Shown: positions 2,153-61,905, numbered from the whole stretch's first letter. The stretch is 63,132 bases of DNA, filler included, from Rhabdomonas costata (GCA_019059605.1; 47 parts of 47 records of this genome joined end to end with filler, not necessarily neighbours in it), one strand, 5' to 3'. A program made the numbers and translations. The notes: generated from the sequence alone by a model not told the origin.

Positions 2153-3299
2153 TAGGAGGTATGTATGTGTAAGTGTGCGGTGTGCGGTGTGGAAAATTCT
2201 GAAGGGCTCACTTTTCGGATATGTGCAAGTCCGTAGAAATGGTCACAAATCATCCTTGCTTTACTCGTCTTTTGCAGTGGGCGGGGAGAGGGAATAAACG
2301 AAGTTCTACGGAAGGGGTTAAGCTCGAGTAAACAGCTTAGCCACTGTGAGCAACTAAGGGGCTCTGACAACCTCCACTGGGGTAGCACAGTGACGCGGCA
2401 GAAAGCGCTGAGGAGGTGGGATTGGCTTCACCGGGAATAGTTGAAATGAGAATCATGTGGGTGTTATGCGTAGGGCAATGACACAGTGGTGGTGGTGGGG
2501 TGGAATATGGAATAAGGCCCGTGTCATCTCAAAAGTCCGAAGTAGGGGTAGACACACAGAGAAAGGACAAAAAGAGGCAAAAAAACCCCCNNNNNNNNNN
2601 NNNNNNNNNNNNNNNNNNNNNNNNNNNNNNNNNNTTAATTAATTAANNNNNNNNNNNNNNNNNNNNNNNNNNNNNNNNNNNNNNNNNNNNAGTTCTCACG
2701 GAAGTCGTTTCGGTTTGGGTTGGAATGGACCCCTGGGCAGCGAGAGTGTAAATTGCTCCCTGCAACCCCATTTTATTGTTGTCAATATTCGAGACTTTCG
2801 GGTCCTTGGGTATCAAGTGGTCATGCAGTCCGACGGGAAGTGACTGTACCCTTGCTTTGGCCAGGCACCCCTTAGTCTGGGACTGCGCTGGGAAAGCTCC
2901 GCGCTGCGGCGAAGTTTTGTGCTGGGCTAATAGCCCGAATGCCAACCTGATAACCCGCCTTTACACCTAAGATACGCTGAATGGCTTGCCGTCGGGGCTG
3001 CTGTTTGAGGCTTCTGACTCGGCAATATCCGCGGTCGATGATCGCATTGCACGGCAAGAATTACATGGAAAGACCTGAGATCTTGGTCCGACCCTCTCTG
3101 CTCCGCATCCCAAGGCATCCTGGATACCGGGACAAACGGGTCATGTGCATCCACCTCCAACCCCATGCAAAATTTTCAACGGAGATTCCAAGTCTTTTTT
3201 TTTTGGCGATTGCTAAGCAGAATGCGCAAATGCCTTTTGGGGGGGGGGTCTGTATAATATATCAGCACGCTCTCTGCTCCATCTGTTGTCTTCCCTCAG

Positions 3300-3609
3300 G
3301 TGTGGAGCAGCCCAGATGGCGCCAGGTGGACCCAATTGCTCTCCAATGCGCCCTTCGGAGGCCGCCAGAACCCAGCCTTGGTAACGCTTTACGGGAAGCT
3401 GTGGATGATGGGCGGGGACGCGACGTCGAGCGGGGCCTTCGCGGACGTGTGGAGCTCCACGGATGGGGTGAACTGGGCCAACCAGCCCGGAATGCCCAGC
3501 ACCCTGACGCTGTTTCCTGCCGCGGTAGTGGGCAACACGCTGTACGTCACCGGGGGCCTGAGCCCGTGCTGCTACAACCCCTCCTTGAACGTGGTGTACG
3601 CGCTCCAAT
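3300..3609 (+). CDS. Internal exon of a kelch-repeat beta-propeller protein with WSSxDGxxW motifs
   Basis: CAG acceptor at 3297-3299 and GTATGT donor at 3610. Kelch GG motifs (KLWMMGG, TLYVTGG) plus VWSSPDGARW and VWSSTDGVNW. Confidence 0.8.
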
Positions 3610-4200
3610 GTATGTGCCTAGAAAAATTATGCACGTGCTGGTCATGCTGAGTTGATGCAGTTGGGTGGTGCCTTGCTTTTGTGTATTTTTTTCTTCGTCC
3701 CGCGCTTTTGCCGGGCTTTCCTGGGCTGGTTAGCGCTGCGCTCCCAAATTCCATCCAATATCCGTCCAGCTCCGAGATTTCGGCCGACTGGGCATCTAAT
3801 GCCTGCATCCCCGATCGTTGCCTGCTTGTTTACCAAGAAGGGCTTCCGCCGCACCTTCCTCTTGCAATAAAACATCCGACACATTCGTAATTTTTGGTCC
3901 TTCGTCAATCATTCGGTCATTGTCCTCCCTCTCCCNNNNNNNNNNNNNNNNNNNNNNNNNNNNNNNNNNNNNNNNNNNNTTAATTAATTAANNNNNNNNN
4001 NNNNNNNNNNNNNNNNNNNNNNNNNNNNNNNNNNNTGTGTGTGGGGTCAAGCAGATGCCTGGTTGAGGACACAACTTGAGCAGTTACGAGACTTAAACTT
4101 AGAGACATATTTAATAGATAAGAAAGGTTTGTCTACCTCCAACACACACACACACACACAGCGCTTTGGGAGAGACCTGGCGGGTGGCCTGATCTCTCAC

Positions 4201-19430: not shown

Positions 19431-19930
19431 GGGAAGAGGAAGAAGACAATCTCCACAGCAGCTGATGAACCTCCCTCATAGTCCGCCTGACCGCCACCTC
19501 CCCACAGGTTGGCACAAGAACAAAGAAAACAACAAAGAATCATCTCTCGCTGTGAATGACCCATCAAAGCAAGAAAAAGTCGTTTTCAGAGCATCGACAC
19601 AAATGCTCCTTCATCAGCCATTAAAATAAAGCCAGCATATCTGTGCACGGGGGCAATAGGACGAAAGACAGCACCCAGACAGTACGTACCTGTGCCGCCC
19701 CAGCAAGGCGCTCACCTCCGCACACAGAACCTGTGCCCACGGAGGAAGGCAAGCGATCTCAGGCTGCACAGCTGTAACCACCCGCCCGGAGAGAAAGAAA
19801 AACGCGAGTTAGGGTGAACGATCAAGTTTGGTGTCGTGTCTTGGATGTTTCAATCATCGGTTAGAAAGAGAAGAGATGGGGATAAATGAGAAAGTGTGAG
19901 TGAATGAGTGTATGTGCCGGATAATGGTTC

Positions 19931-20078
19931 TTTTTGTTTTTGTTTTTGTCCTTGTTTTTGTTTTTGTTTTTGTTTTTGTTTTTGTTTTTGTTTTTGTTTT
20001 TGTTTTTGTTTTTGTTTTTGTTTTTGTTTTTGTTTTTGTTTTTGTTTTTGTTTTTGTTTTTGTTTTTGTTTTTGTTTT
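19931..20078. repeat. (TTTTTG)n microsatellite
   Basis: More than 20 near-perfect hexamer copies running into the contig end. Confidence 0.97.
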
Positions 20079-30790: not shown

Positions 30791-31672
30791 CTTTAACTGG
30801 GCCGGTGTTCGCAGTTGTTGTTTATAAAAGCAGCACACCGGCAGCAGGGGCCAGTTGTNNNNNNNNNNNNNNNNNNNNNNNNNNNNNNNNNNNNNNNNNN
30901 NNTTAATTAATTAANNNNNNNNNNNNNNNNNNNNNNNNNNNNNNNNNNNNNNNNNNNNGGGTGGGGGGCGGGAAGATGGAGGGGCGCGTGCGCGTGGAGT
31001 GGTACAGGTTGTCTCCATGGGTGGGTCAGGCGGAGCAATTGTAACTGCGAAGTGTGTGCGATGCCGAGACTTTAGGTGACCGAACCGAACCGAACCTTCA
31101 CTGGACATCTTTTAGCTTAAGTGGCGTCAGCAAAAAAACCCTCCCAGACCCCAAAAAGATAAGAGCCTTTCAAAAATCGCAACTTGGACACTAAAGAGGT
31201 TTCGATCCTCAGTGACCCTCTAAACTGTTTTCCTAAAAGAACCGAGCGGAGCTCAAGCCGATCCGGAAAGTCACTTCTGCAATACCCACTCACTCCTCTT
31301 GGTGACAACTTGCGAGCGCTTTTCATTTCCTTTTCCCTTTTTTCCCGTCCCCTCGTCCACAGGAGCGGAAGCTTAACCCCCAGCAGCGCTCCGAGAAGGC
31401 CGTGGTGAAGATGCAGCGGGAGTCTGACACGGAGCCTTTGGTGACCCTTTTCGGGGTACGCCCGCACGTTTCCACGAAAAAAAGGACGTAACCCAAAATC
31501 AACATGTGAACTTAAAAAGCAATGAAAGAAAAGGAACCGTTTTTGTGAGGCGGTTCTGCTTCCAACGTTCCAACGTTTAAAGAAGTGATTAGCACTTTGA
31601 GAAAAAGCCTTCGGGGTCATTTTCCAAGAGTTTCGTGAATTACTTACTTCCGTTTCCCTTTCCGTTTTTGTT

Positions 31673-31794
31673 TCCATTTCCATATCCATATCCATATCCA
31701 TATCCATATCCATATCCATATCCATATCCATATCCATTTCCATTTCCATTTCCATTTCCATTTCCATTTCCATTTCCATTTCCATTTCCATTTC
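31673..31794. repeat. Compound hexamer microsatellite (CCATAT)n(CCATTT)n
   Basis: Directly visible. It explains the spurious EMEM/DMDM ORF. Confidence 0.97.
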
Positions 31795-32420
31795 CGAGCT
31801 AACTACCAAAAAGTACTCTCGCGCACAACCCCTGAGAAACGATGTTGACATCAATGATCTCTCTCTCTCTCTCTCTTCAGAGAGTTCCCGGCCAGGCCAC
31901 TGGCAAAGGGCACGCTCTCTGCAAGACTCGCTTCTCACTCACTCACTCACTCACTCTCTCACTCTCACTCTCTCGCACATAACCCCCCACCTCCTCCCCA
32001 CCCCATGCATCCATCATCCCGTCACCCCGCACCTCGCACATCCAGAGCCCGACCCATCCTCCGATTCCACATGCGAAGCATCCCACAAAACGTCGACCTC
32101 CACCCCACAGTCCCAAAGAACCCGACGAAGAGCGTCCAAGACAGGTGGAGATGGTGCCTTGCTGATGATGACCCAACCACTCCGCCAGGGTCGAAAATCC
32201 ACANNNNNNNNNNNNNNNNNNNNNNNNNNNNNNNNNNNNNNNNNNNNTTAATTAATTAANNNNNNNNNNNNNNNNNNNNNNNNNNNNNNNNNNNNNNNNN
32301 NNNGCCATCGGCACAGTCACCAGTTACGTTGAAAAAATGTTCTTGGAATGACTAACTTGAGCGCCAGCGTTTCGAACCAGCTTCCGCCGTGCAAGGCCCC
32401 TTGCGAGTGCTGATGCTTAC

Positions 32421-36338: not shown

Positions 36339-37294
36339 CCCCCCGACGTGCGCGCAGCGGTGCGGGCCTGGCGGGCCTCCGTGAGGTACTCCACTACGCG
36401 CAGGGAGCCGCTCTGCGCGGCGCACATCAGCGCGGTGAGGCCCTCCGCAGTGGCCGTGTTGACGTCCACAACATGCTCTGAACAAAAGCATGCATACAGT
36501 ACTCTCAGAGAAACGGCCACACACTGCAACTGGCAACTTTCAGCGGTGTTTTCCAACGATGGAATGCTTTGAACACCAACAACGTTTGCTAACGGTTACC
36601 AAACTTCTGCCGAAAAAGGTGCATATGGAAAGTCAATGAACAATACCACGCGCATGCGCAGCAAGGGCAGCGCGCAGTCCGAAGTAACATCACTGGTCAA
36701 TGCACCTTTGCGGACATTGTAAAACTAACCAGTCCAATCGGTAACCGCAAGGTTAATGACCTTTGGAGTCCAGACCCTCGACAAAGCACAAAGGCGTGCA
36801 CACACAAAGAGCGTCTCAGGTTTTTCTCAAGTTCATTTCATTTATATCATTCAACCACGGTTCTGATTGCACGGCGAGTGAGGGAGAATCCAGATGACAG
36901 ACAGCTGCAAGGCAAGCGCGCGTTCACGATGCCTGCCAAATGCAGCGCCACCTCCTCGTGGCCGTGCACGCAGGCGAGCATCAGTGGGGTCACCCCAGAG
37001 GCATTCACAGGGTCCAGTGGGTCCCTCAACTCAGAATGCGGTGGCCTCTCACCCACCAGCGGGCCTTCCTGGGAAGCAGCAAGAGTCCCAGAAGCAGCCG
37101 ACGCTCGAGCCCGCTCTTGACTGGTGATGAGCTGCACCACACCAAGGTGACCCATCCGAGCGGCATGTGTCAACGGGGTGTTGCCCTCGAGGTCGGTACA
37201 TCGCAGGTCGGCACCTCGGCGAAGAAGGGCGGAGAACACCTCTGGGTTGCCCGCACACGCCGCCAGCCCCAGGGCAGTGTTCCCGTGTTGATCC
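36339..37294 (-). CDS. Ankyrin-repeat protein, exons 37294-about 36933 and 36477 to contig end
   Basis: GNTALGLAA, GNTPLTHAARMGH, GVTPLMLACVHGH and GLTALMCAAQSG ankyrin consensus repeats. Confidence 0.93.
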
Positions 37295-38078
37295 CTAAGA
37301 GGCACGGGAAAGAGGCACAAAAGTTTAGGGGTAAAACATCCTAATCTAAAATGGAATAATACCGTAATCAGGAATCAGAACGAGAATGGGTGTATACACG
37401 AACGGACCAGGATGCTGCAACGCCTGGGTCTTGCTCTTGTAGAACAGTGTGCGCGTGGGTGGGCGGCGGCGGCGCATTTGCGGTTACGCGCTTCCTACGT
37501 CAATTACAATATTTACACTTTTTTACTGTCCGAAGTGGTCGGTTTTCCTAAATTCGAAGTCAACCCTTAAGTACCAAAAAACCNNNNNNNNNNNNNNNNN
37601 NNNNNNNNNNNNNNNNNNNNNNNNNNNTTAATTAATTAANNNNNNNNNNNNNNNNNNNNNNNNNNNNNNNNNNNNNNNNNNNNGTGGGTTTTTAACAATT
37701 GGTGATGAGAAAATTACCCATTTCGCGATTTCTTTACGAAGGTAGATGGATCGCATAAACCAGCTGAGGGAACCCTGAGGAACTAGGGTCATGGGGGAGG
37801 GGAGGGGGTGGAAAGCGATACACGCGCGGAGTCCTATGCGGCTCGATATGCGTCCTAGAGAAGATAGAGAAGATAAAACTGCCCAAAAGTCATCGTTTTC
37901 GTGATAGTCAAGTAATGGAACGGATGGGAGGGGAGCGGGGAGGAAGGTTTGCCATGCTTGGCCATTATGGCTGGCCAGGGTCCATGCTGGAAAGTGTCCA
38001 AACTCTTTTATTTTTGGTGCGGAAATTCCAAAAAGCCCAAGGGAGCCACCCTCACTGACACGGCAGTCTACCTGCAAA

Positions 38079-45545: not shown

Positions 45546-46184
45546 TAAAGGTTGGGTGCAGATGGCTTATACGGGAGGCGAGGAGTCAGACCGAAAGACA
45601 CAATATAACGTGTTATAAACTGGGAAAAGGGAAATGGGAAATGGGCAAANNNNNNNNNNNNNNNNNNNNNNNNNNNNNNNNNNNNNNNNNNNNTTAATTA
45701 ATTAANNNNNNNNNNNNNNNNNNNNNNNNNNNNNNNNNNNNNNNNNNNNGTGGAGTGGAGTGCCTGAAAAACACAAATGAGCATGAATATGGCAGCACAA
45801 AGAAGAGCACGAGGCAAAACACGGTCGGCACGGTGGGTGTGGTGTCGCTGAACGAGTTACCCTATCCCGAGGTAAAACTTTACACTACCCTTCTACTCGG
45901 TACCGGTTTACATCCCCCAGTGCCGGTACTGCATATTGTTGGGGCGGGGCGTGTCCCGTTACCCGGGGTGGCGGCTTTTCTCCGTGGCAGCCGTCAAGAG
46001 GTGACTTCCCCAGCTTCCACGAGACCGGGAATACAAAAGTTTACCACGGGTAGGAGGACTCGCCTCTGGGTTTATCCGTTCATGAACTTCACCACGTTGT
46101 CGGCTGGTGGGGCATGTAGTGTGTCTGCGGTGCACAAACCCAAAGAATGGCAGAGAAGCTGCTTGAGAGCAACTCGAAAAGTAG

Positions 46185-46477
46185 TCATCATTTATAGTAA
46201 TAAAAATTTTATAGATGATGGAATTAAATAGTTAACATCATTAACAATACTTAACTAATGAAAATTTTACAGATGAAGGAATTAAAAATATTTTATTAAA
46301 AATATTTTATTTAACACACTTGATTGTGGATGTAATAGTAATTTCACGGATAAATGCGTGCATTTATCATTAAAAACATTAAACAGTGATAAAAATTTTA
46401 TAAATGAAATAAAGAAAAAACAAATGGAAAAATATTATTACAACATATTAAAAAATATTAATTTTATTTATAAATAA
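46185..46477 (+). pseudogene. 3' part of a decayed AT-rich LRR gene (giant-virus-like)
   Basis: NKNFIDDGIK*LTSLTIL / NENFTDEGIKN / TLDCGCNSNFTDKCV...NINFIYK*, with an internal stop and frameshifts. Confidence 0.7.
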
Positions 46478-46494
46478 AGTAAATAATTCATTTT

Positions 46495-46994
46495 ATGAAT
46501 AATTTATCTATTGATGTTTTAAATTGTATTTTTGAATATATTGCAAAATCAATATATATAAGATATACAAATAAAAATGGTGTTATACTTGTACATATTA
46601 TGTGAATATAAGATTATCACATAATATTATAATACCAAAAAATTTTAGAATAATAAAGTTATATCTATCATCAACAGTAATAGATAATGATATAATAAAT
46701 AATTTATTTGTATTACAAAATATAGAAACAGTACATTGTTGTGAAAATAATTTAATTACAAATGAAGGAATACAAAATTTACAACAATTAAAATCACTTT
46801 ATTGTGGAAGTAATAAAAATATTACAGATGAAGTAATAAAAAAATTACAACAATTAAAATCACTTTATTGTGGAACTAATAAAAATATTACAGATGAATT
46901 AAAAATTTAAATAAATTAAAAACACTTAATTGTATGTATAATAAAAAATATTACAGATAATGGGATACAAAAATTAACATCATTAAAAAAACAA
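46495..46994 (+). pseudogene. Decayed F-box plus 22-aa LRR gene (giant-virus-like)
   Basis: MNNLSIDVLNCIFEYI..IRYTNK/(K)W is F-box-like, with a frameshift near 46577. Then 66-bp tandem repeats encoding LQQLKSLYCG.NKNITDE.IK.L, with further frameshifts after about 46898. Intronless and extremely AT-rich. Confidence 0.8.
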
Positions 46995-48466
46995 NNNNNN
47001 NNNNNNNNNNNNNNNNNNNNNNNNNNNNNNNNNNNNNNTTAATTAATTAANNNNNNNNNNNNNNNNNNNNNNNNNNNNNNNNNNNNNNNNNNNNGGTTGG
47101 GTGTCCCTGCGCAGAGGTCTGCTCGAGCCCTGAAGAGGCGAATGAGGAAGAATGAGCTCATCGCAACTTGCAACTTCAAGAATTTGCGGAAGATCACAGT
47201 ATTTTTTTTGGAAAAGTGGTTGGTTCCCGGCCTCTCTATGAATCCAACACATGCACGGCTTTACCGTTGTAGCCCATTAATTCAAAGCGAAATGCTGTAC
47301 TCGTAGTCCTCGCGGCGCCTTTGCCTCAAAGCCATTTTGTGACTCAAAGGTCCTGGGATATCGGGTGTGTTCCTGGGGTGGGGGACGCCTCTGCGCTTTT
47401 AGGGAATGGAAGGTCTCCCTGCTGCTGTCCCACCTGCTGGACGTCTGCCCGGCGACAGCCGCGCAGGAGCTGCTGAAGCTGCCACTGCAGCCGTAAGCGT
47501 GCTACCTTAGTCCTGTTTTTGTTCCTACGGGGGACGTGATTGTCTCTCGTGCCATCGGGGAAAATCTCACTCTGTTTTGTTTTACTCCAGTGTCGAAAGG
47601 TTCGTTTCATTTCAAAATTGATTGAGAGATGGCGAGACGTTTCCAAAAATGTGGCGGTGACTCTGCATTTTAATGTGTATCGCCAGGATTTGCAGTTTCA
47701 ATGTCTGTGTCTTTGCCAGAATCTGTGTCAGGTTCTCACAGCGCTTTCCTTGTTTTCCCTTAGTTTTATTCCATTCGAGATGAAACGTGCCTTATAATTT
47801 GTACCCCGTCCATATTCAACGTTGTGCCCCGGGGGGACTGACCGCAACGTCATCGGGTTCCCTGGTTGCATCCAGTATCCCACCCGATACCCAGCTGTGC
47901 GGAGGCGGATCAGCGACCCAATTGAATTGAAAAAGTCGATTTCTTTTCTTTTTGCAGGGTTACACGAAAAGCAGACTGAACACAACTACATGTGCTGCGT
48001 GGGGTCACCGAAGAACTTTACAAGAAGGAACGCGAGAAGAAATAGAACGGTAAAGCAATGCGAACAAAACAAAACAAAGGGCACTATGTACAGTTCTAAA
48101 CTGTATTCGTCAGAAACCCGACCGACGATAAACCAGGGTGGGAGGCAGGGGAGGAAGGAGGGCGAAAATCAGGGGGAAACCAGGGATATTTTTTTTGTGG
48201 GGGCTTGTTTTTCTTCTTTTCAAAGCTCGCTTTGGGTCGTCGTACTACAAGCTTAGGGTTGAAAACGAATTAATGGTAAAAGAAATGGGCAAGGCGGTCT
48301 CTATTTCCGATCCAAATAACAAAAACAAAAACAAAAACNNNNNNNNNNNNNNNNNNNNNNNNNNNNNNNNNNNNNNNNNNNNTTAATTAATTAANNNNNN
48401 NNNNNNNNNNNNNNNNNNNNNNNNNNNNNNNNNNNNNNTGTGGGGGGGGGGCGAGGGGGCTAGCAC

Positions 48467-48734
48467 CGGAGGAACTCCTGGGCATCGTGTTGGCGGTACC
48501 CCGCAAACGGGGAGGCCCAGCTTCCCACCGTTGACTTGAACTTCGAGGGCGTGACCACGGAGGGGTTGGGCGCCCACAGCTTCGAGACGACCTCCCCGTA
48601 GGCCTCCGCGAGCTTTCCCTTGAGCCCCCGGGTGCGGTTGAGGTGCTGCTTGTGGCGGCCCGTGACAAAGTACACTGTCAGCGGCTCCGTGTTGGAGAGG
48701 CACTGCAGGGTGGCGTTCATGAAGCAGGTGTTCC
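48467..48734 (-). CDS. Ubiquitin-specific protease (peptidase C19, USP4/11/15-like) Cys-box exon
   Basis: GNTCFMNATLQCLSNT...GKLAEAYGEVVSKLW...FAGYRQHDAQEFL; CAG acceptor and GT donor. Confidence 0.95.
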
Positions 48735-50512
48735 CTGCGTGCGGCGTTTTATTTTTCGGAGATTTGGGGTGTGTGCGTGTATGCAAGTTCGCGTGATGCA
48801 AGAATTGGGTGGTTCGATGATGATGATGATCTTGGTTTTTCGCCAACTCTTGATGCCCTCCCTGCCATGTTCCAACACGATCATCACACTGCTACAACAC
48901 CGAAAGCTACACTGTGAACTGAGAGTTTTCTTCACAGCACAGCACATTATAAGAAGCAGCGAAACAGCGTACGCTAACCAGACTTCTGTTCGAAATGTCG
49001 CATGCCAAAGGAAGCGCACATATTCAAACTTCCCCTCAAGCAAGATTAACGCTCACCACCCCCGACACAGCCCACCACTTGCACAGACATCGCCCTTTAC
49101 ACCGGGCCTCAGCACCCACACTCAACATCAACTTCACGTTGCCATCTCCGCCACAGAACGCAGAACCCAAGTCCACCACAACCAGAGCCACGACACCCCA
49201 CCAACCAACAGATCCCCAACCACCTCACCAATCTCATCGGACAAAACCCAGAAACGTGGCACCAAACGCCAGCACCAACAACATAACAGACGCACTCCGA
49301 CTCATTGACCCTCAAACCCACCCCAAAAACGCAATGCCCAACAATGCAAACAATGCTACCCTAGAGTACCGGTAGAAAACACGCACGCGACTAACTCAAG
49401 GCCGAAATCAAGAAAATCACAGAACCCAACACACCATTAATGCCAATAGAGCAGCGAATGCAGAACACCGAACCCGTGTGACAAAAATCCTGTGCTCCAA
49501 TCCCAAATACACAAGCAAACAAGTCAACACCTAAGACAGAACAACATCAAGCGCAGTAACCTGCGTAGCAGATCGAAACGGAGACCGAAATCAGAAACCG
49601 GATAAAAAACACCAACGAGAATCAGAATAGAAACACAACAAAACAACAACGTTGCTTCTCCTCTGTGTAAGCAAACAACAAAANNNNNNNNNNNNNNNNN
49701 NNNNNNNNNNNNNNNNNNNNNNNNNNNTTAATTAATTAANNNNNNNNNNNNNNNNNNNNNNNNNNNNNNNNNNNNNNNNNNNNGTTTTTGTGTTTGGTCA
49801 CCGCCCCACTTTCCCCCTTGTGTAGAGAGAGTGTTTAGAGGACTCACAAATAGGAACAACAACCTTGTGATTCCCCCGTGTCTGACATGTGCTTCCCCAT
49901 CCAAGGATTCTCGGGAGGGTGGTTGGGGCTAGGATGCGTTCGGTCGGGCGTGGCGTGTCCGGCATCTTGGGTCATGTGCAGTGGGGGGCGCCTAACAGAC
50001 GCCTAACAATGTTAGACCGCCACCCCAACTGTGCCCCGTTGGACTGGTCCAATCACTGCCATGCGTGTAACATGGAAAATATGAGCCTGCGTGGCCTTCT
50101 TTTGGATTTCCGCACTTTGTTAGGGCTGGGAGCAGCGATATCCCGTTCTCTGGTTAGTATTGTGACCGAATTTTGGTGGTTGGACATTTTTTCAGCACTG
50201 AACCCTTCACAACCCTTTACATGAGGTCCCATACAACTCACAGGCTGCAGGTTCACCATATTGGGATATAGCGGCGGACTGGAACGAGGTGATCGGGAAG
50301 TTCCCACCGGGCTCGATTTTGGGGCCGGGAACGAAAACCCAGATGTCAAATGTCAGAACGTCAATATATCTTTCCTTTTGTTTTCCTCTGAGTATTCTAA
50401 TCTTTTTTTGAACATCGCAACCTCTCCCCTATCCGCTGGCGTGCTGCCTGTGCCCGACACCACACACCGTCCTCTCTCTTCTCTTTTTCCGCCGGCCTTC
50501 CTGTCCTCTACG

Positions 50513-60430: not shown

Positions 60431-61905
60431 GTATACCCCACCNNNNNNNNNNNNNNNNNNNNNNNNNNNNNNNNNNNNNNNNNNNNTTAATTAATTAANN
60501 NNNNNNNNNNNNNNNNNNNNNNNNNNNNNNNNNNNNNNNNNNTTTTGGTGGTTGCGTGCTTCGGGAGTGCTGACCTTTCGTCTGTTGCTTCCTGTACAGC
60601 TCTATCCTGTGTTTATGTGCCTCTGTTTGTCCTCCCCGGGCTCTTCAGCCCTGGAGGAACAACGTACTCCCTTTTGATCTGTGTGGTTGACTGCTGTTTC
60701 ACAGTTCTAAATGTTCCGGAAATATCACATCACAGGGCCACCCTTGAACACCCACGACGCTTGTAAAGTAAAGTGGGGGGGGGATACCGTGCCGACCCCC
60801 TACAACACTCCAAAGCTTGATTTGCAGCTCCATACCCGCATCTGATTTCGAACCAAACTCATCATCCCCCTCTAGCTCTGTTTTCCTCTCAAGTGGTCTG
60901 AAAAGCATCATCATCCTTCACGACAGGACCATGCCCCCCTGGGGGAGTCTCTTTCTAGTTGGAACAGTTAAGACGTCAGAAAGAGAACGGGAAATTCACG
61001 CCCGGTAGAAACTCTTCTTTCTGTATGCGGGTGAGAGCGGGTCGTCTCCGAAGATTCCAATGCACCCACTGCTGGACGAGGTTGGGCTGCTGCTGCTGGG
61101 CCTGGAGAGCCCTACCTTTCCCTATGACCCCGTTCAGGGCCAGTTTGGCTTTCCGCCGCCGCCCGCTGCAAAAGAGTTTCTGAGCCTCGGCCGTAGCTCG
61201 CAACGGCACGATGAAGGAAAGTTGTCCCAAGGTGCACTGCCCTCAATTGACCGTTGAACAGCTCCCCTTTTGACAAGGACAGTCCATGCAGACAGTCCCA
61301 GTCCGGAAAAAGTCATCTGATTAAAAGGTTCCCTTTCGGGGAAGCCGAGGTTTTGGTTTCGTGGTTTGAATATGTGCGGTTTGCACCTATTCTCACGTGG
61401 TTAAAGAACGAATGTAGTTCAAGAATATGATGTGGTTGTTGCTGGTGGTAAATCTGCGTGGTTAGCATCGTGAATGCGACACAAATTTCTCGTCAAGGAA
61501 AACGTGTAAAACCGCACCACAGCAGAGAGGGAAAAACCCCATGCTGCTGCCCGCTCGGTCTCAAGAAATTGTTGTCAACACCCCACCACGGAGCCTCCAT
61601 GTGAGAAAGATTTGACCACCTACGCTGTGACTCCGCTTGGAATTAGGTTAGCAATGACCTACTGAGAGCTGTAATTCGGAGCACTCCACGGGTTAGGTGG
61701 GGTCAATCGTAATTGGAACAAAGCTGCTGCTCAACGGCAGAGGCTTCAATGCACTTTCCCCTTCTCCGGGAGAGGTACACCAAACCCNNNNNNNNNNNNN
61801 NNNNNNNNNNNNNNNNNNNNNNNNNNNNNNNTTAATTAATTAANNNNNNNNNNNNNNNNNNNNNNNNNNNNNNNNNNNNNNNNNNNNTTTTTTTTGTCTT
61901 TTCAG

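Follow-up and report, generated by a model that had tools for sequence, protein, structure and literature searches.

A contig from the unplaced part of a protist assembly joins host-like DNA to very AT-rich DNA that carries two LRR genes, which raises two questions: what kind of genome the AT-rich part derives from, and whether it is physically inserted in host DNA or was joined to it artefactually. The window analysed, 63,132 nt in full, consists of 47 contigs of 1236-1261 bp and 46 identical 100-nt artificial linkers with the structure N44 + TTAATTAATTAA + N44. The linker 12-mer TTAATTAATTAA is its own reverse complement and, from a reading of its sequence, TAA is present in all frames. The 47 contigs are evidently unplaced and size-sorted, at ~1.2 kb. 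Three of the 123 open frames of at least 110 aa in the remaining contigs match Pfam (ankyrin, ubiquitin hydrolase UCH and Kelch), and these contigs look like mostly non-coding eukaryotic DNA.

The AT-rich DNA is confined to a single 1245-bp contig (45750-46994), in which 428 bp of host-like sequence (~54% GC) are followed by 817 bp of ~17% GC that run up to the contig end (Table 1). The window holds no other AT-rich stretch apart from a (GTTTTT)n microsatellite at 19821-20060. The linkers had been missed in the first-pass annotation, and the right limit of the element is the contig end plus a linker (46995-47094), not host DNA. Since the DNA to the right of 46994 is from a different, unrelated contig, a biological origin is possible for the left junction alone. 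An EVE is expected to be continuous with host DNA on both sides; here the left side is host-like and the right side is the end of the contig.

Table 1. Features of the AT-rich contig and its borders, with positions counted from the first nucleotide of the window.
Feature	Position	Strand	Basis
Artificial linker N44 + TTAATTAATTAA + N44, separates from preceding contig	45650..45749	.	linker scan of window
Host-like GC-rich flank, ~54% GC, apparently non-coding	45750..46177	.	4-mer score, Pfam, codon-position GC
Junction zone, host-like/AT-rich	46170..46185	.	GC profile, tblastn alignment starts
Gene 1, 5'-truncated degenerate LRR remnant	46178..46477	+	tblastn, reading frames
In-frame TAG within otherwise good repeat NKNFIDDGIK*LTSLTILN	46229..46231	+	frame reading
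Exact 14-nt tandem duplication, 2.2 copies of ATTAAAAATATTTT	46281..46311	+	100% matches, score 62
Perfect 16-nt palindrome TTTATTTATAAATAAA over gene 1 stop	46463..46478	.	no more than chance
Spacer between gene 1 and gene 2, 17 nt	46478..46494	+	sequence reading
Gene 2 N-terminus, 27 codons, contig frame +2, MNNLSIDVLNCIFEYI...	46495..46575	+	tblastn to P0013
Gene 2 linker and LRR array, cut by contig end	46575..46994	+	frames, Pfam, phmmer
66-nt (22-aa) tandem LRR units, 3.6 copies	46755..46988	+	80% matches, score 269
Artificial linker; unrelated contig beyond	46995..47094	.	linker scan

The two LRR genes

Gene 1 starts in the middle of a repeat, at the junction, and is read through three contig frames, +3 (46178-46256), +1 (46251-46292) and +3 (46286-46477). 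The first frame change lies near 46250 and the second is caused by the 14-nt duplication at 46281-46311; one of them falls outside any run of at least 5. GC3 in the last 63 codons is 10/63, and GC is flat across codon positions, with no periodicity. The in-frame stop, the duplication and this lack of a codon-position signal make gene 1 look genuinely degenerate.

Beyond its N-terminus, gene 2 is read in frames +1 (46575-46907), +3 (46898-46957) and +1 (46920-46994). The 111-aa ORF at 46575-46907 matches Pfam LRR_4 (E 2.4e-8, 34.4 bits against a cut-off of 27). The same family is found in 12/12 of the A1 members scanned (the window ORF and 11 relatives), which places them among the LRR proteins. 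The core N-x-N-[IF]-T-D-E-G-I-K occurs in seven copies over 46196-46994. An A5-A6 run is present in all three intervals, 10-38 nt wide, in which the frame of gene 2 must change, suggesting that the breaks of gene 2 may be base-calling errors or homopolymer miscalls in what would be an intact gene of a live virus; the enrichment at A-runs is not significant, with 25% of gene 2 positions lying within 3 nt of a run of at least 5. These breaks are accounted for equally well by decay, by base-calling error or by very recent slippage. An alternative genetic code with TAA/TAG as sense was considered and rejected: the N-terminus is in frame +2, which ends in TGA, and the LRR array in frame +1, and gene 1 shifts frame twice.

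The description given in the first-pass annotation, of same-strand LRR reading frames 17 nt apart, built of 22-aa repeats and both broken, agrees with these results. Gene 1 ends with TAA at 46475-46477 and gene 2 begins with ATG at 46495; the repeat unit is 66 nt, in 3.6 copies over 46755-46988; and both genes are broken, gene 1 by the TAG at 46229-46231 and two frame changes and gene 2 by three frame changes. The term 'decaying', also used there, is borne out in part: it suits gene 1 and is less certain for gene 2, which retains an extreme coding signature (GC3 3/111) and whose breaks fall in intervals with A5-A6 runs. The two neighbours differ significantly in GC3 (10/63 vs 3/111, Fisher p = 0.002). 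This unequal decay suggests that gene 1 was a dead paralog before any join, and it may already have been one in the virus.

A palindrome over the gene 1 stop had been read as a hairpin at which transcription ends. The perfect 16-nt palindrome itself is present at 46463-46478. However, a palindrome of this length or longer turned up in 137 of 1000 dinucleotide shuffles of the AT-rich part, and the RNA fold of 46436-46505 (-5.6 kcal/mol, z = -0.38) is no better than that of shuffles. As neither the palindrome nor the fold exceeds shuffled sequence, there is no evidence for a hairpin-type transcript end, and the terminator reading is not supported. The Mimivirus early-promoter octamer AAAATTGA is absent from the contig. 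Mimiviridae transcripts are described as undergoing hairpin-dependent polyadenylation, the 'hairpin rule' (PMC4402537). Compared with the transcript ends outlined in that source, the A/T palindrome is similar in overlapping the upstream stop within a very short spacer, but differs in that both palindrome and fold are at shuffle level.

Affinities of the AT-rich part

A phmmer search with the 111-aa ORF against 1.84 billion representative proteins returned 1119 matches at E <= 1e-3, the best at 6e-39. The best 20 of these 1119 are all metagenome or SRA-assembly proteins in clusters of 1-2 members and without an organism name, and none of the 20 is in NCBI or UniRef. The protein most similar overall is P0013 (178 aa), whose linker and LRRs are 48% identical to the window ORF over 89 aa; this and the other closest relatives, P0004 and P0001, are without taxonomy. 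No locus was confirmed in IMG/VR for P0008 or P0004, and a word-indexed protein search for longer relatives gave no match at E <= 1e-5. No donor above ~50% identity was found in any collection searched (IMG/VR, protein representatives and metagenomes).

The closest relatives that can be placed are on giant-virus rather than cellular genomes. The only IMG/VR relative confirmed by tblastn (42% identity) is in a bin labelled by IMG/VR as a giant virus, GVMAG-S-1040238-38, which also encodes the RNA polymerase Rpb1. A metagenome scan recovered two loci only, with the same 42% identity and matching ORF layouts, and these look like the same entity as the bin relative. A degenerate DNA pattern of the repeat core is found in four stretches on three IMG/VR viral contigs. 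One of these three contigs, G003 (21 kb, 27% GC), encodes Pox_A32, Rpb1, thymidine kinase, a Pol-X-type polymerase and RNase H. At its end lies a tandem pair of F-box-like/LRR-type genes separated by 22 nt, and the N-terminus of the first resembles that of gene 2. A further record, G002 (94 kb, 21% GC), has no A32 or Rpb1 match. PF04451 (MCP) was not matched in the three viral records; control genomes were likewise blank, so this result is uninformative. Among the Atlas neighbours of P0013, Viruses appear in 9 of 10 rows, and Nucleocytoviricota is the commonest phylum in 8. Only three of the 120 profile matches listed carry an organism name: Hyperionvirus (2e-26), a Chlamydiota MAG (1.5e-17) and a Planctomycetota MAG (8e-15). 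Hyperionvirus we take to belong to the Mimiviridae (Klosneuvirus-like) group. In blastp, two NCLDV contig proteins score 42-43.5 bits, Hyperionvirus 34 and bacteria 23-31, a modest viral-over-bacterial margin for an LRR similarity that is partly repeat-driven.

The giant-virus genes on G003, in GVMAG-S-1040238-38 and in Hyperionvirus2_192 share with the window genes the core N-K-N-I-T-D-E-G-I-K at a 21-23-aa period, a hydrophobic N-terminus of the type M..L..D.L..I..YL, AT-rich coding and tandem same-strand copies ~20 nt apart. They differ in that identity is 36-47% over 46-67 aa only, and the window copy has 17% GC (against 21-28%), contains a stop and frame changes and adjoins host-like DNA. 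Taken together, these comparisons indicate that the AT-rich part is very probably of giant-virus origin. Such an origin had been proposed in the first-pass annotation, which named best matches to LRR genes of AT-rich eukaryotes or bacteria among the results that would speak against its reading. The IMG/VR bin, the repeat-core pattern, G003 and the Hyperionvirus match support the proposal: relatives that can be placed are giant-viral, and the nearest ones are without taxonomy. The 817-bp element contains no hallmark gene (MCP, PolB, A32, VLTF3 or RNAP), only the two LRR genes. An organelle-derived insert (NUMT/NUPT) was ruled out, as its content is LRR genes and zero Rfam families reach threshold over the whole window.

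The main non-viral rival is an AT-rich intracellular bacterium (for example of the Chlamydiota or Dependentiae, or Rickettsiales-like, groups of protist symbionts with expanded F-box/LRR families) whose DNA was transferred or co-assembled. The 17-nt spacing and the lack of introns would also fit bacteria, and the Chlamydiota and Planctomycetota proteins are among the profile matches listed. However, these named bacterial matches score below the giant-virus ones, and for bacteria values such as 17% GC and a GC3 close to 3% are extreme. The genome scans do not support this source either: in 596 Gb of prokaryote genomes (185,579 species, one genome each) the repeat-core pattern is absent, and of 128 candidate stretches that a protein-guided scan picked out there, only two were confirmed, both as weak matches (one 64% identical over 22 aa, the other 31% over 80 aa). 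A bacterial origin is thus improbable, even though large F-box/LRR expansions are reported from amoeba-associated Chlamydiae (PMC4209131).

The first-pass annotation had described gene 2 as an LRR gene with an F-box-like motif at its N-terminus. The LRR array is upheld, with LRR_4 above cut-off. An F-box would be an N-terminal domain of ~40-50 aa detectable by PF00646 or PF12937, and the 36-aa N-terminus of gene 2 matches 0 Pfam families at E <= 10. Its likeness to an F-box comes solely from a tblastn alignment to residues 1-27 of P0013 (13/27 identical). PF00646 is matched at E <= 0.1 in 3 of the 12 A1 members scanned, the best at 7.9e-4, which is below a confident level. In the Atlas neighbour clusters of P0013, 17-42% of members carry an F-box. 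Thus, the label 'F-box-like' is reasonable but unproven for gene 2. FBXL repeats have a period of ~26 aa, compared with 22 aa in the window. Eukaryotic FBXL SCF adaptors, in the form outlined in PMC7729025, resemble the window genes in domain order, with a short box at the N-terminus and an LRR solenoid after it, and in the conserved Cys/Asn and I-T-D motif of the solenoid, and differ in repeat length and in that the window N-terminus reaches no Pfam F-box model.

This resemblance bears on a eukaryotic source, in which the AT-rich part would come from an AT-rich eukaryote (contaminant or prey) or be a native AT-rich island of the host with FBXL-type genes. The Atlas model of P0013, a predicted structure, aligns over its full length to eukaryotic FBXL clusters (TM by query 0.71-0.75), and CC-type LRRs with an ITD motif are of eukaryotic origin. 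Against this, a gap of just 17 nt separating two complete transcription units is unlike eukaryotes, no eukaryote is named among the 120 profile matches listed, the other 46 contigs hold no further AT-rich island, and GC3 is 0.62-0.90 in host coding pieces as opposed to 0.03 here. A eukaryotic source is therefore very improbable.

On the preferred viral origin, 46178-46994 would be a fragment of an F-box-type/LRR paralog array from the very AT-rich genome of a member of the Nucleocytoviricota, probably Mimiviridae-like. Judging from the family, the encoded proteins would most likely act in the virus as substrate adaptors, in which a short N-terminal F-box-like helix bundle would bind the Skp1/cullin ubiquitin ligase of the host, and host proteins destined for degradation would be selected by the 22-aa LRR solenoid. 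Such paralog arrays may grow and decay via tandem duplication.

The junction and its interpretation

GC content in 100-nt steps is 0.48-0.63 over 45750-46149 and 0.10-0.23 from 46200 to the contig end. The abrupt switch that had been noted near 46185 is borne out by this profile, GC dropping by ~37 points within ~50 nt and without a transition zone. Six tblastn alignments of relatives start exactly at 46178, and three weak ones extend to 46130-46163. The sequence TCGA lies within the junction zone, at 46174-46177. In a 4-mer Markov model, the flank (score -1.962) ranks at the 54th percentile among 138 pieces taken from the other 46 contigs, and its CpG o/e is 0.81 (0.78 in the other contigs). 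No Pfam match was found in the flank, nor any repeats shared with the rest of the window.

A frame that shares the phase of the first LRR unit is open from 45752 to 46228, across the junction; among host pieces, 2.7% are open over 426 nt in a given frame. A fusion gene across the junction was ruled out, as the open frame is without a Pfam match and without codon periodicity, codon-position GC in the flank being flat (0.54/0.53/0.58) where host coding pieces have a GC3 of 0.62-0.90. The open frame is treated as chance.

The reading favoured here, at a probability of roughly 0.4, is that the 817 bp at 46178-46994 are a recent small viral remnant (EVE), physically inserted in host nuclear DNA. 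The fragment would be dead cargo in the contig, with gene 1 lacking its 5' part and gene 2 interrupted as read and cut by the contig end. The alternative is an artefactual join of host DNA with low-level giant virus DNA, through a chimeric clone, read or amplification product or through a mis-join. In that case some or all of the breaks in gene 2 would be homopolymer miscalls, and the remnant of gene 1 would have pre-existed in the virus. Integration and chimera are about equally likely.

Several features of the contig fit an artefact. It is a single 1245-bp unplaced leftover with one junction and no second flank, and leftover contigs are where chimeric clones and reads collect. The size and sharpness of the GC shift and the start of the viral fragment in mid-repeat point the same way. 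Insertion, for its part, is favoured by the flank, which is compositionally typical of the other 46 contigs. The contig also lacks the traces that some artefacts would leave: Illumina or Nextera adaptor motifs are absent throughout 45750-46994, the junction included, and a blastn comparison of each contig half with the window found nothing shared that could have led to an overlap or k-mer assembler mis-join. None of the other 46 contigs is purely AT-rich, so free viral DNA is not abundant among them, as a chimera would require; such DNA should produce far more contigs of purely viral sequence than chimeric ones. Pure AT-rich contigs were possibly filtered out as contaminants, and in that case their absence says nothing.

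The state of the genes also bears on both explanations. The TAG, the exact 14-nt duplication and the frame change outside runs of at least 5 are not typical base-calling errors, which favours insertion, though the TAG and the duplication could be real features of the virus. The A5-A6 run in every frame-change interval of gene 2 suits an artefact, although it is not a significant enrichment, and the GC3 of gene 2 is the signature of a gene under selection in an AT-rich genome. The adjacent genes have decayed unequally, which equal neutral decay after one insertion does not predict and which fits decay before any join.

If the insertion is real, it is probably not old, as gene 2 shows no drift toward host composition (GC3 3/111, against 0.62-0.90 in host coding sequence). 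A join that is both real and very recent, placing DNA of a Mimiviridae-like virus (~17% GC) in a protist lineage without close sequenced relatives, is nevertheless unlikely. The host is assigned to such a lineage because its UCH fragment is at most 54% identical to any protein searched, the top organism-named match being from Diplonema papillatum (45%).

Were the junction real, it would be a small footprint of a past giant-virus infection and would tie a specific protist host to a Mimiviridae-like lineage that is uncultured and very AT-rich; such links are scarce. Were it also very recent, gene 2, still unameliorated, would point to an integration so young that the donor virus could remain in circulation. 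As giant-virus insertions in protists are already widely documented, the fragment would add one more example and no new principle. Were the junction an artefact, it would flag a chimeric or contaminant contig among the unplaced part of the assembly, and would illustrate that windows of linker-joined contigs can mimic 'insertions flanked by host DNA'.

Endogenous giant-virus elements have been reported from Euglena gracilis (PMC12455990), Acanthamoeba (PMC12210455), diverse protists (PMC10120064) and plants (PMC4083422). In these accounts, the defining features of EVEs/GEVEs are hallmark genes (MCP, PolB, A32, SFII and others) and a length of tens to hundreds of kb placed in scaffolds. The window fragment differs from the elements so described in its length of 0.8 kb, in encoding repeat proteins only, with no hallmark gene, and in having one unverified junction. 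It resembles them in its viral-type genes lying beside host DNA and in gene erosion.

Make-up of the window and its host coding pieces

The entire window (1-63132) was put together artificially from 47 contigs of 1236-1261 bp each, sorted by size. A feature that seems to span a linker, or to be flanked across one, is not biological. The only host frames in the window with Pfam matches are the UCH, ankyrin and Kelch pieces (see table). GC3 of the UCH piece is 0.74-0.90. No relative of this piece was found with more than 54% identity, indicating that the host lineage is thinly covered by databases. Besides the AT-rich LRR fragment, low GC is seen in the window only in the (GTTTTT)n microsatellite. 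Hexanucleotide repeats elsewhere in the window give rise to long spurious open frames.

Features of the window and of L001, a stretch of a giant virus bin contig
Feature	Location	Strand	Remarks
Linkers	1247-1346, 2591-2690, ... 61788-61887		N44 + TTAATTAATTAA + N44; between contigs
Kelch motif	3258-3647	+	Pfam 5e-6
(GTTTTT)n microsatellite	19935-20078		~24 units; reaches a contig end
Hexanucleotide repeats	31601-31938		translate as (EM)n/(DM)n; opposite strand gives (SI)n
Ankyrin repeats	36850-37374	-	Pfam 4.8e-16
Open frame over GC-rich flank	45752-46228	+	in phase with first LRR unit
UCH ubiquitin hydrolase	48463-48891	-	Pfam 9.5e-21
DUF4116-repeat genes	L001 507-1889 and 5560-6234		flank the LRR gene

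The open frame across the GC-rich flank

Among host pieces, 2.7% are open in a given frame over the length of the flank frame. As this frame has neither codon periodicity nor a family match, its openness is probably due to chance.

Neighbouring genes and domain fusion in relatives

DUF4116 is found in 10 stretches on L001 (E 9.6e-45), and is a further repeat-protein family expanded on this viral contig. The metagenome protein P0005 (851 aa), one of the relatives, carries a dynamin-family GTPase domain at its N-terminus (Dynamin_N, 1.3e-23), fused to the same LRR unit, CxNITDEGISKL, in ~11 near-identical copies. This is an uncommon domain pairing.
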